A stretch of DNA of 47,287 nucleotides from a virus (Duplodnaviria > Heunggongvirae > Uroviricota > Caudoviricetes), in the IMG/VR virus record IMGVR_UViG_2870474514_000002, one strand, 5' to 3'. The notes under the pieces were generated by a model that was not told the origin of the DNA, searched no databases, and was given only the letters and a program-made list of their open reading frames with translations. The translations under genes and the position numbers were made by a program. Below are positions 1,511 through 41,279 of the stretch, piece by piece; the stretch's first letter is position 1; every line of letters starts with the position of its first letter.

Positions 1511-4500
1511 TATGCAAGCCTCACAATATAGTTAAATGCGATGTTTTTGACGGTGTTTTCCGCGTTACCAGCAGCGTTAACGGTGATGGTGTGTCCATGT
1601 GAGCCAATCGCAACAGAGTGCGTATGAGCACCAATACCGACAGTATGTGCGTGAGCACCTGCAGATGCAGCTGTGCCGCTGACACTATGAGTGTGCGCTC
1701 CTGCAGCACTTGTATTCACACTGGACGCAGACACTACCTTATGTACTGATCCATTTTGTGACCACTGGCTGACTGCTGATGCGCCTGTGACACTATGAGT
1801 ATGGTTTCCGGCACTTGCGGCTGTACCGCTCACACTGTGCGTATGTGCCCCGGTGTTATTCGTGGATTTAGTGCCGTAATCAAACGACGATGTGGTTTTC
1901 GTCCCCAAATCCGTACTGGATGCGCTGGCGCTGTGGGTGTGCGATTTAATGCCGTCCTGTTCCTGAGACAATACGGCCCGACCACTGGCAGGTTTGCCCT
2001 TAATCGTCCAGCCACGCATATCAGGGATCACGCCTGACGGATAAGCCGCTGCAAGTTTCGGGTATGCAGATTTGTCAAAAGTCTGCCCCTGCATCAGGGC
2101 ATAGCCAGACGGAACGGTATCTGATGGCCACGGGATTGGTGCGCCGACTGGGTAGCTTTCTGGTGGAAGATTTTTCGAGGTATAAACTTCTGCCCAGTCT
2201 TCCTCAAAACCATAGCCATCTCTTGAGGAACGGTAGAACAGACCTCCATTTCTGTAATGTGCCTTCATCTGCAGGGTCCGGCAACTTCCGACTCCGGTAT
2301 AGAAGTTAACCAGAATATAGCTGTCGCCAGAGCGGGTGACATTGTAAGCGCCTGATTCGGCATTCCATGGAACGCCCCCATCCGCATCGGCATACGTATC
2401 CGTTGCCCTTCTGGCAAAAGCAGCCACATGCGCGGCGGTTAAAGTAATATCTTTGGAACCATCAAACTCAACACCAGAAACCAGTCTTGGCGTTTGCAGC
2501 TTTGTTGCTGTTAATGCATTACCGTTCAGACTTGCGGACAGTTTGGTTCCAATAACCAGTTCGCCGGTTGCGTTATCAATAGCAAACGGTCTTAATGTAT
2601 TCCAGCCACCATAAACATCACCTTGATTGGTAAGCAGCAGGTAAGTTTTAGCGCCATCATTACGCCATAATGCACCATACTCCCCACCTATCATTCGAAT
2701 CTGATTACCACCACGCGCTACAATTTCGTCTGTGGCAAAAAGTTTTTTGCACGACAAGTTATCGTTAACGATTAACGAATGAGACTCATAAAAACCACGC
2801 CCACTCTTAAAATCAAGGATAACGTCCGCCGCGATACATTCAGTCGCTGGATTTGTTGCCCCAAACTTATAGGTCGTATCATTAACAACGAGATCAGCAC
2901 CAGGTGCGGATATTGACAGGCCATCTTCGATAAACGCAAAAACAGGGAAAGCAGCGCCATCAACATAGAACACAGAGCGCAAATCATCGCCCTTATTACT
3001 CATCATTATTGAGTGGATGGCTCGTTCATTGTTTTGATATTGCCAGAACATTCCATAAGCATAACGCCCCCTGTCAGTCCAGCCACCAGGCATAACAAAT
3101 CCGTTAAACTCGCAGTTATTCATCGGATCGCCTGCGGTTCGCGTTGCCGTGGTGATAATGACCCTTGATGCCAGTTCGCTTACTGAGCCAGCAGAACGCA
3201 TAACAACAACAGGGTAATATTTTCCAGATGTTGCACCTGCAGGAGCGTTAACCCGCACATAACGCATACCACGCTTATCAGCAAAGTCTGTTTTACTGAC
3301 CGCGTTAATGTTGTTCAGGAAGCGTCCCTTATCGGGTATATCAGCGCCGTTCTGGTCTTTCTGCAGACGTTTCTCTGCATTGTCATAGGCTGATTTTACT
3401 GCCTTTGGCGTTGCCGCCAGCGTTTCAGACGTGCTGTTGGTCGCACTGCTGAGCTGTACTATCCCCTTTTTCGTCGTACTTGCATCCTCAAGCGCCACGG
3501 CGGATGCAATATCCTCTGCCCGTTTTGCCGCTGTCTCGGCGCGCGTTGCCGCGGATTCTGCCGTACTTTTGCTCTGTGCTGCCGCCGTCGCACTGCCAGC
3601 TGCCTCTGTCGCCTTCGTGGATGCTGTCGTGGCGCTGCCCTTCGCTGCGGACGCTTGTCTGGTCGCCTCATCTTTTGAAGCAGACGCCGATGAGGCCGAT
3701 GACGCCGCCGAACTGGCGGACGATGCGGCAGCCGTTTTTGAGGATTCTGCGCTGGTTTCCGACGCTTTCGCGTTCGTCTCGGATGTCTTCGCTGCGGAAG
3801 CAGACCTCGCTGCTGCACTGGCCTGTTCAGTGGCTTCGCCAGCCTTCGTTGTGGCTGTTGAAGCGGACGATGCGGCGCTTTCTGCCGATTTTCCGGCGGC
3901 GCTAGCACTGGCTGAGGCCTGCCCGGCACTTGTTGACGCGGCACTGGCAGACGACGCAGCCGCTGTTTTTGAGCCTGCCGCAGCTGAGGCACTCTGTCCC
4001 GCTGCCGTTTCAGAAGACTTAGCGTTCGTCTCGGACGTTTTTGCCGCCTTCGCAGAATTTGCTGTCGCCGTTGCCGAGGAAGCTGCGCTGCTGGCGCTCG
4101 AGGCTGCGCTCGTTTCTGATGATTTTGCCGCCTCTTTTGAAGCTGACGCATCCCGGGCTGAGGTGGCAGCTTCTGACGCTTTCGTGGTCGCGGTGGATGC
4201 AGAAGTGGCTGCTGATTGTTGTGACTCTGCCGCATTCGTTTCTGACGTTTTCGCCGCAGCGGCACTGGTGGCCGCCGAGCTTTTTGAGGACTCTGCAGCG
4301 GCAGCACTTTTTGATGCTTCAGTGGCCTTTGTTGATGCCGTTCCTGCGCTGGAAGACGCTGACTGAGCCGACGACGCGGCCTGTCCGGCTGACGTGCTGG
4401 CTGCACGTGCTGAATCTGCAGCATCAGTCGCATGGGTTGCCGCCTCACGGGCAGATGTGCTGGCATCACTGGCTGACTTCTTCGCGGCTGCCGTGTTCTG

Positions 4501-4863
4501 TGCCACTGCGGACGCGTTACGCGCCACCTCTTCCACCATCAGTTCAAAACGTCGCAATGCCTCCGGACGGGCATCATCCTCCGTCATGGCACCGAGAAAA
4601 TCATTCAGCGTACCGGGTTGAGAATCTTCATACACGGTGATGGTCCCGGCATGTGACGGCGGGAATCCCTCCACCAACAGAATAACGCTGTACTGACCGT
4701 ACTCAACGTCCATGCTGTAACGCCCGGCTTCATCCGGATTTTCTGAGGCCACCGTGTTCACCACCACCGTGGTGCTGTTACGTTTTGCTTTCAGCTGGAT
4801 TGTGCAGTTCTGTACCGGTTTTCCTGTGCCGTCTTTCAGTACACCTGAAATCTTTACTGCCAT
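1510..4863 (-). CDS. stfR: Side tail fibre protein Stf
   Basis: About 1117 aa. N-terminus [26 protein letters not shown] is lambda Stf-like. Long Ala/Ser/Thr-rich central repeats. C-terminal His-rich GAHTHSVSG repeats typical of fibre receptor-binding tips. ATG at 4863 has a GGGGTG SD; the GTG at 4869 used by the ORF track is an alternative. Confidence 0.9.
3460..4540. repeat. Low-complexity Ala/Ser/Thr codon tandem repeats inside stf
   Basis: Stf residues about 110-470 are repeated A/S/T/K/E units (for example [18 protein letters not shown]). The GC-rich repeats create long spurious ORFs on both strands (3431..4366 plus, 3459..4469 minus). Confidence 0.6.
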
Positions 4864-27388: not shown

Positions 27389-28846
27389 TTAGGAGCGCCA
27401 AAAAAAACCTGAAAATAATATAATAACAGGATAAATTTCAAGGCGACCAAGAATCATAGCTATGCACATTAAATATTTTGCAATGTCATTAAGCACTCCG
27501 AATGACGATGCAGTAGCCCCAAAACCTAATCCCATATTATTAATACATGCAGCCACTGTTGCAAATGATGTAAGAAAATCATATCCCATACCATTTAACA
27601 CCAGTATAAAAAACACCGTGAAGAGAGTATAAAGAAAAAAGAAACTCCATACAGACCTCATTACACGATCTGTAACTATCTTCCCTCCTACATTTACACT
27701 CAACAACGCTCTGGGATGAGAAAGCTGATTTATCTCGTGTTTGCTTTGTTTGAAAAGTATAAGAAATCGAAGTGACTTAATTCCACCACAAGTTGAACCT
27801 ATACATCCCCCAAAGAAACTTGACAACAGCAAAAATACTATCGTGTGCGTGGGCCAGTTTGCATAATCTTGCGTAGCTAAACCATTATCAGTGAGCATGG
27901 AGCTGGCAAGAAAAAACGAATGAATAAAACTTCCATGCAAGTCATACATACCTATATGCCAGACCTGGAAAGAGGTAACAATGATCACCACTAAGGCTAT
28001 TAACAGAAAGAAACGAAGTTCAATATCTCTGATTAAAGGTTTTATCGTTTTCCTGCTAATAACAATATACCAAAGAGTGAAGTTGAAAGCCGATAGCAGG
28101 GAAAAAGAACCAGCCACCAGCTCAACCAAATAGTTATTAAAATATCCGATACTCTCGCTATGAGTTGAGAAACCACCAAGCGAAACTGTGGAAATCCCGT
28201 GACAAATAGCATCAAACAAAGGCATTCCTGCAAGTCTATAACAGACAATACAAGCAATACCTAATAAAGAATAAGTTATCCACAGTGTCCGTGACGTATC
28301 GGCCAGGCGGGGAGTGAGTTTGTCATCCTTAAATGGCCCCGGCATTTCTGACTGATAAAGCTTTGCACCACCAATACCCAATAATGGCAATACAGCAACC
28401 GCCAGAACAATAACTCCTAAACCACCTATAAAATTTAACTGTGACCGATAGTACAAATATGCCCGAGGTAATGAACTAACATCATCAATTACAGTTGCTC
28501 CTGTTGTTGTTATTCCAGAAACCCCTTCAAAAAGAGCATCAATGAACGTTAAATTAAGTTCTGAGTCAATCCATAAAGGGAATGCACTAATAACAGAAAA
28601 CAAAATCCAAAACATTACAATTATAATAAACCCATCACGGGTACGTAATTGAATGCCAGATTTCTTAGTTGTATACCACGCTCCGCCACCAATGCAAAAA
28701 AATATAACGAAGGTTATAAAGAAAACGAACAGGCTTTTTTCTTTATAAAACAATGCTACAACCATTGGTGGCAACATTGAAAGACTATAGAGCCAAACCA
28801 GGAACCCACACATATGAGTAACAACTCTTACATGAGATGTATTCAT
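27389..28846 (-). CDS. trkG: TrkG/TrkH-family potassium uptake protein
   Basis: 485 aa from MNTSHVRVV, polytopic membrane protein with the repeated glycine selectivity-filter-like motifs of Trk/Ktr transporters (GITTTGATV, SLGGFSTHS). AT-rich relative to the flanking phage genes. Confidence 0.9.
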   Translation of the reverse strand: MNTSHVRVVTHMCGFLVWLYSLSMLPPMVVALFYKEKSLFVFFITFVIFFCIGGGAWYTTKKSGIQLRTRDGFIIIVMFWILFSVISAFPLWIDSELNLTFIDALFEGVSGITTTGATVIDDVSSLPRAYLYYRSQLNFIGGLGVIVLAVAVLPLLGIGGAKLYQSEMPGPFKDDKLTPRLADTSRTLWITYSLLGIACIVCYRLAGMPLFDAICHGISTVSLGGFSTHSESIGYFNNYLVELVAGSFSLLSAFNFTLWYIVISRKTIKPLIRDIELRFFLLIALVVIIVTSFQVWHIGMYDLHGSFIHSFFLASSMLTDNGLATQDYANWPTHTIVFLLLSSFFGGCIGSTCGGIKSLRFLILFKQSKHEINQLSHPRALLSVNVGGKIVTDRVMRSVWSFFFLYTLFTVFFILVLNGMGYDFLTSFATVAACINNMGLGFGATASSFGVLNDIAKYLMCIAMILGRLEIYPVIILFSGFFWRS

Positions 28847-30935: not shown

Positions 30936-31010
<75 letters not shown>

Positions 31011-31013
31011 ATA

Positions 31014-31089
<76 letters not shown>

Positions 31090-38886: not shown

Positions 38887-39309
38887 TTAATGAACAATGA
38901 CAGAATCGTCGGAAGACCCGCCGCCGCTGAAATGCGCTTTCCGGTAAACGGCCTGGACTGCATCATCATGCGCATCAATTGCCGTACTTAACGCTTCCTG
39001 CGCCGCCAGTAATGCACGGCGTTCCAGGGTATCGAAGATGCAGAGTCGGTGACGCAGCTCGCGCGGAAGGATTGCCAGAATTGCAGGGATCAGTTTCTGA
39101 ATTTTTTCCCTTTGCGCTTCCGTTTCACCTTTTAACCAACGGTGATAGATGTTCTGCTGATTATTCCAGTCCTTGCCTGGTACCAGGGGCAATTCGCCGC
39201 CCCCCTGGCGCAGATATTCTTCAGTAATGGCATTGGCTACCCATGCCTGCCCTTTTTCGGCTGCCAGGGCTAACAACACTGACTCGATGTGCTCATGCTT
39301 GATTTTCAT
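38887..39309 (-). CDS. ydaT: YdaT-like protein (CII-like regulator / cryptic toxin)
   Basis: 140 aa ORF immediately downstream of the Cro-like ydaS homologue, overlapping it by 4 nt. Confidence 0.7.
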   Translation of the reverse strand: MKIKHEHIESVLLALAAEKGQAWVANAITEEYLRQGGGELPLVPGKDWNNQQNIYHRWLKGETEAQREKIQKLIPAILAILPRELRHRLCIFDTLERRALLAAQEALSTAIDAHDDAVQAVYRKAHFSGGGSSDDSVIVH

Positions 39310-39560
39310 GAATCAACTCCCATCAGCTTTTTCGTAGTAGTTTTATTTCTGCCAATAGTTAAAATCACATCGGCAGAAAATAATCCGTTTGATGCATGAG
39401 CGATTTTTTCAGCGTAATTTGTTTCGCCGGTATATTCTGTGCGAGGCAATTTTCCGTTATCCATCCATTTGTAGATTGCTCTTTGGCTGACACCACAAAC
39501 GTCGGCCACAACAGAAACGCGAACAGTTTTGATTACATCTTCAAGTGTTTTCTGGTTCAT
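39306..39560 (-). CDS. ydaS: Cro-like HTH regulator YdaS
   Basis: 84 aa from the ATG at 39560 (GAGGGTGA SD); HTH segment VADVCGVSQRAIYKWMDNGKLP. Divergent from racR. Confidence 0.7.
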   Translation of the reverse strand: MNQKTLEDVIKTVRVSVVADVCGVSQRAIYKWMDNGKLPRTEYTGETNYAEKIAHASNGLFSADVILTIGRNKTTTKKLMGVDS

Positions 39561-39639
39561 ATCACCCTCACAATGTGAACTTTGAGTACATGCTATAACA
39601 GAACTGACAGTACATTCAAGAGCGAATATCATTGAACTT
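39561..39639. promoter_or_regulatory. Divergent promoter/operator region between ydaS and racR
   Basis: 79-bp intergenic region with two direct AGTACAT repeats (39585..39591 and 39609..39615, 24 bp apart). Confidence 0.35.
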
Positions 39640-40059
39640 ATGGTTCATGAAGATAAAGCGCGTAAAGAGTTCGCCAGTAGGCTTGCGCTAGCCTGTGAAA
39701 ACGCTGGTTATGAACAACATGGAAGGCAGGCAGAAATTGCCCGTCGAATGAAATTAACACCAAAAGCGGTTAGCAAATGGTTTAATGGCGAAACAATTCC
39801 TCGCCGAGAGAAATTAAGGGAATTAGCAACACTCATTGGAACAACACCAACCTATCTTTTGGGAGAGGATACAGAAGAAAGTGGACAGGTACGTTTCTAT
39901 CAGGAGTTAAATCCAAGACAAAAAATCATCATTGACCTTCTGGACGAGCTCCCTGACAGTGAGACAGATGAACTTTTAAAAACTCTTGAGGAGAAAAAAC
40001 AGAAGTACAATGCAATTTACGAAGAATTAGCACGAAAGAAAAAACAAAAAGCCTCTTAA
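39640..40059 (+). CDS. racR: Prophage repressor (XRE-family HTH), RacR-like
   Basis: 139 aa with an N-terminal HTH (RQAEIARRMKLTPKAVSKWFNGETIP) and an acidic/Lys-rich C-terminus; divergent from ydaS. Confidence 0.75.
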   Translation: MVHEDKARKEFASRLALACENAGYEQHGRQAEIARRMKLTPKAVSKWFNGETIPRREKLRELATLIGTTPTYLLGEDTEESGQVRFYQELNPRQKIIIDLLDELPDSETDELLKTLEEKKQKYNAIYEELARKKKQKAS

Positions 40060-40349
40060 ACCAGCATAAATCCGGTAGCGTCCCCCTCCGGGTTTGTGCT
40101 TCACTTTATCCCATCTCATTTTTTTACACACAAGATGTACTTAAAGTACTTTACATCAATGAACACAAAGTACATTATATACCTACCAACCCACCCCGCC
40201 CCACAGAACGCAGGGCAATACTTCGAGTTACCAGGCAGTGGTCAGGGGTTAAGTAGCCAGCCCGAGGCGTATGAACATGACGGCAGGGTTCAGATTTTGC
40301 AGTGCAGCAGGTTTCAGTTCCGCCACCCGGCGTTAAGGGGAGAGATAAG

Positions 40350-40484
40350 ATGGTGCATTACGAAGTAGTTCAGTATTTGATGGATTGTTGCGGTATCACT
40401 TACAACCAGGCTGTGCAGGCTTTACGCAGCAACGACTGGGATTTCTGGCAGGCAGAAGTCGCTATACGCAGCAACAAGATGTGA
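40350..40484 (+). CDS. ydaG: YdaG-like small protein
   Basis: 44 aa from the ATG at 40350 (AAGGGGAG SD): MVHYEVVQYLMDCCGITYNQAVQALRSNDWDFWQAEVAIRSNKM. Confidence 0.7.
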   Translation: MVHYEVVQYLMDCCGITYNQAVQALRSNDWDFWQAEVAIRSNKM

Positions 40485-40647: not shown

Positions 40648-40845
40648 TCCATTATTTGGATTAATTCAATATTCTCGCTGTAGGGGTATAGCAGAAACCA
40701 CCGAAGCCCGGAGGTGGTGAAATAAAACTGGGCGCAACACGAAGGCGCATTTCCGATATCCATAAAGAGTCGGTCTTGTCTGTTAAATTTAAATGGTGGG
40801 AGTGCGCCTCCGGTTGTAAATAACGACATTGCTGTGTGTAGTCTT

Positions 40846-40892
40846 GGCGGCATCAGTTTTTTCTTGAAGTTCGGCTGATGTCCGCCCTTTTT
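40846..40892 (+). terminator. Terminator-like hairpin in the sieB-equivalent gap
   Basis: Stem GGCGGCATCAG / CTGATG(T)CCGCC with an 18-nt loop, followed by CTTTTT. Confidence 0.35.
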
Positions 40893-41057
40893 AAAGTGAA
40901 TTTTGTGATGCGGTGAATGCGGCTAAGCGCACGCGGAACAGTTAAAAGCATCAGTGTTATGGGTGGATTATCCGGCGTTAATTGTTAACTGGTTAACGTC
41001 ACCTGGAGGCACCAGGCACCGCATCAACAAAGTTCATTTGTGAAAATGGAGATAATT

Positions 41058-41279
41058 ATGATTGCTCATCACTTCGGAACTGATGAAATACCTCGTCAGT
41101 GTGTGACTCCTGGTGATTATATTCTTCATAACGGCCGGACATATATTGCCTCGGCAAACAATATTAAAAAGCGAAAACTTTATATTCGTAACCTGACCAC
41201 AAAAACATGCATTACTGACTGCATGATTAAAGTCTTCCTCGGTCGTGATGGTTTACCTGTAAAGGCGGAGTCATGGTGA
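41058..41279 (+). CDS. kilR: KilR (FtsZ inhibitor / killing protein)
   Basis: 73 aa from [21 protein letters not shown], with a GGAG SD. Confidence 0.8.

Follow-up and report, generated by a model that had tools for sequence, protein, structure and literature searches.

The question raised by this locus is why a short word, AGTACWT, recurs in both early control regions that flank the immunity genes of a Rac-family prophage, and which regulator would use it. The window, meaning the whole stretch of 47,287 bp that was analysed, is an apparently complete Rac-family prophage, extending from tail fibres to intR, with structural, lysis and integration genes all represented. Its immunity genes comprise a gene for an 84-aa Cro-like protein (39306..39560, minus strand) and a gene for a 139-aa immunity repressor with an HK022/933W-type HTH N-terminal domain (39640..40059, plus strand). 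These had been called ydaS and racR, respectively, in a sequence-only reading, which proposed that the recurrent word represents operator half-sites of RacR or YdaS. The 79-bp gap between the ATG of the cro-like gene (39560, minus strand) and that of the repressor gene (39640, plus strand) holds two copies of AGTACAT, at 39585-39591 and 39609-39615, situated 24 bp apart, and the region downstream of the repressor gene holds ATGTACTT at 40135, AAGTACTT at 40144 and AAGTACAT at 40168, exactly where that reading had placed them. The GTAC-N5-GTAC inverted arrangement that it had described in the downstream region is likewise present, with positions 40137-40149 forming the perfect 13-bp palindrome GTACTTAAAGTAC.

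Over the whole window, no enrichment of AGTACWT could be observed, with 11 strand matches where 7.1 are expected, a count attained in 10 of 100 shuffles. Six of these 11 matches are, however, located inside two non-coding stretches amounting to 369 bp or 0.78% of the window (binomial P 1e-10), where 0.10 matches are expected from the local composition and where none of 20,000 shuffles reached six. Clustering of the word at both early control regions is far above chance, and the recurrence claimed by the sequence-only reading is borne out.

The word AGTACWT constitutes one half of a longer unit, a 17-bp pseudo-palindrome ATGWACT-N3-AGTWCAT, which is present in five copies. Exact matches to GWACWNNNAGTAC occur at four sites (5 strand matches) in 47 kb, all within the two control regions, against 0.06 expected. 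The two AGTACAT copies between the divergent genes had been considered direct repeats, and their positions hold; but both are preceded by GAACT at equal distance, with ACT-N3-AGT forming a dyad, and each forms, together with a left half of the GAAC variant, an inverted repeat of 17 bp in which it occupies the right side. These partner half-sites escaped notice because they represent the ATGAACT version, the 7-mer being the ATGTACT version on the other strand. A fifth, weaker site GAACTTATGGTTC (39634-39646), with one deviation from the pattern and spanning the repressor start codon, was overlooked because both of its halves are of the GAAC/GTTC variant.

The five sites, to which no strand is assigned, are designated here as OR1, OR2 and OR3 in the divergent region and OL2 and OL1 downstream of the repressor gene. 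OR1 (39575..39591; GTGAACTTTGAGTACAT) is an exact GWACWNNNAGTAC match, has AGTACAT at 39585 as its right half-site and covers the start region of the predicted promoter PR. OR2 (39599..39615; CAGAACTGACAGTACAT) follows 24 bp from OR1 with AGTACAT at 39609 as its right half-site, fills the spacer of predicted PR and contains the -35 hexamer of the predicted maintenance promoter PRM. OR3 (39632..39648; TTGAACTTATGGTTCAT), 33 bp from OR2, spans the repressor ATG at 39640 and the predicted PRM start. On the other side of the repressor gene, OL2 (40135..40151; ATGTACTTAAAGTACTT), with its perfect 13-bp palindromic core, holds the motifs at 40135 and 40144 and abuts the -35 element of the predicted promoter PL with a 2-bp overlap, and OL1 (40159..40175; ATGAACACAAAGTACAT), 24 bp from OL2, holds the motif at 40168 and overlaps the predicted PL spacer together with 3 bp at the start of its -10 element. 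The 13-mer cores start at 39577, 39601 and 39634 in OR and at 40137 and 40161 in OL, so that neighbouring site centres are 24 and then 33 bp apart within OR, and 24 bp apart within OL.

Using a position weight matrix (PWM) trained solely on 20 sites from other phages (HK022, Salmonella, Klebsiella and 933W-type), the top five scores in the 47,287-bp window, ranging from 16.1 to 21.0 bits, were obtained for exactly these five sites, with the sixth score at 10.7. OR3 scored best in the window (21.0), followed by OL2 (19.7), OR1 (19.4, third best), OR2 (16.3) and OL1 (16.1). When 500 block shuffles were scored in the same manner, a mean of 0.08 and a maximum of 2 scores of at least 16 were found. 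Over the whole window the PWM revealed neither a third OL site nor an HK022-like extra operator, only the five sites scoring at least 12 bits, and one-mismatch matches at 4690 and 15152 were dismissed as further sites, since they fall within chance expectation. From their sequence, the five sites are very probably operators of the HK022/933W type, and would add one more set to an operator family that is already known.

These sites are interlaced with three predicted promoters. Predicted PR (39592..39619, minus strand), which would serve the cro-like gene and ydaT, has a -35 element TTGAAT (39619-39614), a 16-nt spacer and a -10 element TATAGC (39597-39592), the latter positioned within the OR1-OR2 spacer. 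Its assignment is based on positional homology to the annotated 933W-type pR, TTGCAA-16-CATAAT, and to HK022 TTGACT-16-CATAAT. No minus-strand promoter was called in a consensus promoter scan, and the -10 TATAGC does not end in the conserved T; a weak PR, or one located a few bases away, is conceivable. Predicted PRM (39604..39632, plus strand), CTGACA-17-TATCAT, was obtained in the scan with 10/12 matches, and its -10 element ends seven bases before the repressor ATG with a predicted start at about 39639/39640. The repressor ATG is not preceded by a Shine-Dalgarno sequence, which suggests that the PRM transcript is leaderless, as annotated for 24B, and in the supplement of PMC8053113 a 'PM -10' label next to the sequence upstream of HK022 cI points to a leaderless layout as well. 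Because OR2 has the PRM -35 element at its centre, one cannot assume that OR2-bound repressor activates PRM in the manner of lambda. Predicted PL (40150..40178, plus strand; 9/12 matches in the scan), TTTACA-17-CATTAT, would serve ydaG, ydaF, kilR and recET, and its -35 TTTACA is kept in phage Tritos, HK022 and Salmonella phage ABTNLsp11242. When the PL leader (40184-40349), which is conserved, was considered as an antitermination RNA of the HK022 put kind, it exhibited no excess folding stability (z=+1.0), no Rfam match and no blastn similarity to HK022.

The two proteins encoded on either side of OR resemble those of HK022 rather than those of the Rac prophage of E. coli K-12. HK022 Cro and the Cro-like protein share 62% identity over 73 aa (E=2e-34); identity of the latter as a YdaS orthologue was ruled out, with 6/18 residues common with K-12 YdaS. 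Likewise, the repressor is no RacR orthologue, with 12/33 HTH residues common with K-12 RacR. Identity of the repressor to HK022 CI amounts to 47% over the first ~100 residues and to 933W-type CI to 51% over the first 73, and the protein annotated as CI in Escherichia phage Tritos matches it at 100%. For the recognition helix, the sequence is TPKAVSKWFNGE as compared to TPKAISKWFNGE in HK022, and when the repressor is aligned with HK022 and 933W CI, K42, S45, K46, W47 and F48 do not vary. In the 933W repressor, K42 and K46 are needed for specific binding, which is abolished by the K46A substitution (PMC3317979).

The C-terminal part of the repressor follows a different plan. No S24 or LexA-like cleavage domain is present in the 139 aa, in which Pfam finds HTH families only, and alignment with HK022 and 933W CI places an unrelated tail of about 50-60 aa in this part. 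In the AlphaFold2 model (mean pLDDT 82), an HTH domain of five helices is followed by a linker predicted as disordered (residues 79-86) and by a helical hairpin with helices at residues 92-103 and 106-138. Full-length relatives with 62-89% identity were found in E. coli and Salmonella; other relatives match the N-terminal domain only, and the full-length proteins among them (about 235-240 aa) carry S24 peptidase domains. Foldseek comparison of the repressor model to the PDB returned nothing at E<=0.001, the weak matches being HTH-family regulators, many of them aligned over the N-terminal domain only. SinR/SinI, an arbitrium repressor complex and the Salmonella SPC32H repressor are included among these weak matches, as leads only. 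The predicted fold suggests, again as a lead, that dimerisation may be mediated by the tail and that control may be exerted by means other than RecA-stimulated autocleavage. Since the repressor lacks the C-terminal dimerisation/cooperativity domain of HK022 CI, neither a particular oligomeric state nor cooperativity between OR1 and OR2 or between OL and OR can be assumed.

The genes and their sites together form an immunity cassette (cro-OR-repressor-OL/PL; 39316..40183, no strand assigned) of 868 bp that is situated in place of the ydaS-racR cassette of K-12. Using blastn against K-12 Rac, 95-96% identity is observed up to 39315 and from 40184 on, with nothing in between, and matches to HK022 are confined to the cassette, at 39465-39710 and 40119-40179. 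Because similarity to K-12 breaks at both ends of the cassette and the HK022 matches lie inside it, the cassette must have been exchanged as a unit. All five sites lie within it, and K-12 Rac has RacR and TTAGGC-type operators at the equivalent places; judged by sequence, the operators co-vary with the regulator pair, as would be expected of cognate sites. The window matches E. coli strains such as AR_0374, in which a 1.2-kb query is 100% identical and RefSeq CDS coordinates equal those of the ORFs of the window, and the cassette is found at coverage of at least 80% in 1041 of 5426 complete E. coli genomes, about one fifth.

Comparison with relatives revealed that the sites are conserved in position and in core sequence. 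Among 60 half-sites from 9 genomes, the core reads G (58/60), W (60/60), A (60/60) and C (60/60), followed by T in 47 and C in 10, and these counts reproduce the published 933W specificity, established by experiment as a symmetric 15-bp site with positions 2-5 critical and T or C at position 6 (PMC3317979). HK022, phage Tritos and Salmonella phage ABTNLsp11242 all show the distances seen in the window, 24/33 bp for OR and 24 bp for OL; in Klebsiella phage 2b the OR distances are likewise those of the window, and in 933W-type phages they are 24/32 bp. Two Salmonella prophages with short repressors at 62-65% identity keep the five-site layout despite an insertion of higBA after the repressor gene, which displaces OL by about 900 bp but leaves its two sites at a distance of 24 bp, and in each of these 5.4-kb loci no exact GWAC-N5-GTWC match occurs outside the five sites. 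Between the window and HK022, 35/36 core positions are identical as compared to 68/107 other aligned non-coding positions (P=2e-5). At closer range, across 81 IMG/VR and Shigella loci with repressors 99-100% identical, a set which informs on polymorphism and not on divergence and whose genome-contig part is one Shigella flexneri chromosome with an identical repressor, polymorphic positions account for 1/36 in the GWAC cores versus 35/167 elsewhere (P=0.004). Variable positions cluster in the spacers between operators and at the central N3/T positions, and OR2 exhibits none across the 81 loci. Conservation in related prophages, on which the sequence-only reading had itself made its claim depend, is thereby observed. 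Full-text literature searches yielded no mention of these operator sequences or of phage Tritos.

Of the explanations other than a working switch, the one that survives best, though it is still improbable, holds that these are genuine HK022-type operators in a decaying relic, the switch being dead due to a weak PR and a truncated repressor. Rac of K-12 is a cryptic prophage, and the PR -10 TATAGC with no minus-strand promoter called in the scan and a repressor without the S24 domain would be in line with such decay. However, the 139-aa form is not truncated, having its own conserved helical tail and stop codon, as seen from the full-length E. coli and Salmonella relatives, and an identical repressor is encoded by phage Tritos, which was deposited as a complete 46-kb phage genome. 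The presence of the cassette in roughly one complete E. coli genome in five, a polymorphism that avoids the operator cores, and the full structural, lysis and integration gene set of the window also argue against a relic.

Highly unlikely is the explanation that A+T-rich promoter DNA gives rise to the recurrence, by chance or through -10, -35 or UP elements, with no protein-specific operator involved. The sites do overlap predicted promoters and AGTACWT is not over-represented across the window as a whole, but six matches against a local-composition expectation of 0.10 are not accounted for in this manner, and the core GWAC-N5-GTWC is dyad-symmetric, unlike any sigma-70 element. Moreover, the cores are fixed between relatives while promoter hexamers and spacers drift, and in 933W the same kind of site is bound by the repressor in experiment (PMC3317979).

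Still less credible is the assignment of the motifs as operators of K-12-type RacR and/or YdaS. It draws on a gene order and position equal to those of racR/ydaS in K-12 Rac, with flanks 95-96% identical, and on the fact that RacR likewise has three inverted-repeat operators O1-O3, (T/A)TAGGC-n3-GCCTA(T/A), the third of them over the racR ATG (PMC9638921). However, besides the lack of orthology of both proteins, the RacR motif is absent from both non-coding control regions of the window, even when 2 mismatches are allowed, and in the K-12 sequence the RacR motifs are visible but no GWACT-N3-AGTWC sites are present. Hence, the original proposal of operator half-sites at both early regions stands, but the proteins named for them, RacR and YdaS, do not. 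That the motifs are binding sites of YdaT, the CII-like, DNA-binding activator of the module (PMC9986795), whose gene directly follows the cro-like gene, has next to no probability, since YdaT recognises TTGATT-N6-AATCAA, whose sole exact copy in the window (39299-39316) is at the junction of the cro stop and the ydaT start, outside OR and OL.

The reading preferred here is that of operator half-sites in a real but ordinary lysis/lysogeny switch with a textbook lambdoid arrangement. The sites exist, are non-random, have positions and cores that are conserved in relatives, and travel with the repressor/cro pair; the identity of the protein that binds them, the order of binding and the regulatory outcome we infer. 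According to the proposed mechanism, dimers of the 139-aa CI-like repressor would bind the five two-fold symmetric operators through their helix-turn-helix domains. Occupancy of OR1 and OR2 would bracket the PR -10 element and cover its spacer and start, switching off the operon of the cro-like gene, ydaT and replication genes, and occupancy of OL1 and OL2 would cover the PL -35 and -10 elements, switching off the ydaG-kilR-recET operon. OR3 is centred on the predicted PRM +1, and binding there of excess repressor or of the Cro-like protein, which is expected to use the same operators as the repressor, would turn down the repressor gene.

The mildly novel part of this switch is the pairing of HK022-type operators with a short, non-cleavable repressor. 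It is conceivable, though doubtful at present, that the set is governed by a domain-swapped repressor, in which an HK022-like DNA-binding domain is joined to a helical hairpin that replaces the RecA-cleavable S24 domain. If this were true, lysogeny would be independent of autocleavage, induction would proceed via a small antirepressor engaging the tail (cf. SinR/SinI and the SPC32H repressor) or would not occur, and the host would possess a standing immunity against superinfecting phages of HK022 immunity, as the recognition helix and the operators are nearly the same. The assignment also corrects an error of annotation by position: Rac-family prophages exist in several heteroimmune versions, and the widespread one in the window uses an HK022-type switch, for which reason conclusions drawn with K-12 RacR, concerning operators, the lethality of racR loss and cross-talk with restriction-modification C proteins, should not be carried over to it. 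Exact coordinates for five operators and three predicted promoters are now available and directly mutable, and the locus offers a natural case for studying how CI-type DNA-binding domains recombine with different control domains and whether cryptic-looking resident prophages protect against HK022-like phages.

Among known switches, that of CP-933P, with PaaR2, YdaS and YdaT (PMC8630535, PMC9986795), has in common with the window lambda-like OR and OL sets, a leaderless repressor gene, YdaT as a CII analogue and a YdaT box where the cro-like gene ends. However, it differs by its operator consensus GTTTAGTAA, of which no match with up to 1 mismatch occurs in 39000-40400, by another repressor family and by a toxin-antitoxin pair after the repressor. 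The K-12 Rac switch (PMC5700373, PMC9638921) belongs to the same element family, with the same gene positions, three n3-spaced inverted repeats and a repressor that, like that of the window, is without a LexA-like domain, but its recognition sequence TTAGGC-n3-GCCTAA is unrelated and its repressor and Cro-like proteins are not orthologous, which defines a heteroimmune cassette.

Correspondence is also found with 933W and with 24B, a phage of 933W immunity (GenBank HM208303), whose annotated OR1-3, pR -10/-35 and pRM map base for base onto the predictions made for the window. In 24B, OR2 contains the pRM -35, seven nt separate the -10 from the cI ATG, and transcription from pRM is annotated to start at the base preceding this ATG. 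Both share with the window the tripartite OR, a pR -10 between OR1 and OR2, OR3 over a leaderless cI start, the half-site core of G-(A/T)-A-C followed by T or C, and the conserved K42 and K46. Only two OL sites are reported for 933W (933W/24B system of the Koudelka laboratory: PMC3317979, PMC5977221), as in the window. Differences concern the OR2-OR3 spacing of 32 bp as compared to 33 bp in the window, outer bases CG... instead of AT/GT..., S41 in place of P41, the S24 domain of the 933W repressor and its Stx phage backbone.

The HK022 immunity region (Carlson & Little 1993, as cited in PMC8053113) provides a close counterpart in operator layout. Its OR consists of GTGAACTTATGGTTCAT, CGGAACTGATAGTACAG and TTGAACTTATGGTTCAA, with 13-mer starts at 2432, 2456 and 2489 corresponding to 39577, 39601 and 39634 of the window. 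Its sites are thus spaced 24/33 and the third covers the cI ATG, both as in the window, and OR3 of the two is equal at 16/17 positions. HK022 OL is arranged as ATGTACTATTGGTACTT-TACATTA-ATGAACTTTAAGTACAT, with OL2 of the window homologous to ATGTACTATTGGTACTT and OL1 to ATGAACTTTAAGTACAT, and in both systems the PL -35 TTTACA is situated between OL2 and OL1 and overlaps OL2 by 2 bp. HK022 CI, which binds adjacent OR and OL operators cooperatively and loops OL to OR, as reported in the loopometer paper (PMC8053113), is a protein of 235 aa with an S24 autocleavage/oligomerisation domain, in contrast to the 139-aa window repressor with its unrelated helical tail. HK022 also has OL3 and an extra operator downstream of cro, seen at position 2165 of the HK022 sequence about 270 bp from OR, neither of which is found in the window, and its flanks carry cII and nun, whereas those of the window are of Rac type (ydaT, ydaG/F, kilR, recET). 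Thus, the switch of the window departs from the HK022/933W set in lacking the S24 domain, which is a matter of protein architecture and not of operators, and from HK022 proper in OL3 and the extra operator, but it agrees with the set in the form of the sites, the OR triplet, the OL cluster, the recognition helix and the type of Cro.

The left junction of the swapped immunity cassette (39315/39316) coincides exactly with a YdaT-type palindrome, TTGATTTTCATGAATCAA, which is perfect, occupies 39299-39316 and covers both the stop codon of the cro-like gene and the ATG of ydaT. In CP-933P, a prophage with a PaaR2/YdaS/YdaT switch, the recognition site of the CII-like activator YdaT, TTGATT-N6-AATCAA, was defined by footprinting at the end of ydaS (PMC9986795), and the sole exact match to this site in the window is the one at 39299-39316. 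A YdaT-type box with one mismatch is also present in the Rac prophage of E. coli K-12.

The divergent region that separates the cro-like gene from the repressor gene has one copy of the repeat TT(C/A)TGGTTCAT at each end: the copy at 39550-39560 overlies the start codon of the cro-like gene, and the one at 39638-39648 that of the repressor gene. The right copy constitutes one half of OR3, the predicted operator spanning the repressor ATG. Since no recognisable partner half-site accompanies the left copy, a sixth operator at this position is unlikely.

Residues of about 90-139 of the repressor (gene at 39640-40059) form a conserved helical-hairpin tail (LLKTLEEKK..Y..Y.EL..KKK) in the place of the S24 peptidase domain, which suggests a domain swap at the tail as compared to HK022 CI and an induction without dependence on RecA-stimulated cleavage. 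An unannotated homologue of the repressor, with 63% identity over residues 1-102, is found in Klebsiella phage 2b LV-2017 (1501-2211 of its locus, L006), where a separate CDS designated 'C2' begins 43 bp past the end of the match; this may reflect a CI gene that has been split or frameshifted, or else an annotation error.

The interval between ydaF and kilR contains on the plus strand a DicF-like antisense RNA at 40833-40887 (41.1 bits, E=7e-7, against a gathering score of 48) and directly after it an STnc100-like sRNA at 40889-41072 (42.6 bits against 47), each match being slightly under the Rfam threshold. DicF is annotated at the equivalent position in Escherichia phage Tritos. Based on the RefSeq annotation of the E. 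coli AR_0374 chromosome, whose CDS coordinates coincide with ORFs of the window, a trkG potassium-transporter gene (27389-28846) lies with lysis genes to one side and the head-gene region to the other, and two tRNA genes (Gly and Thr, 30936-31089) adjoin the lysis cassette. From tail fibres to intR this prophage looks structurally complete, unlike K-12 Rac.

In two Salmonella enterica prophages carrying relatives of the short repressor, a HigB-toxin/HTH-antitoxin gene pair (3053-3720 in locus L090, 3088-3755 in L091) is inserted with the repressor gene on one side and the OL operators on the other. Lambda has rexAB in this same slot, and CP-933P has paaA2-parE2 there.
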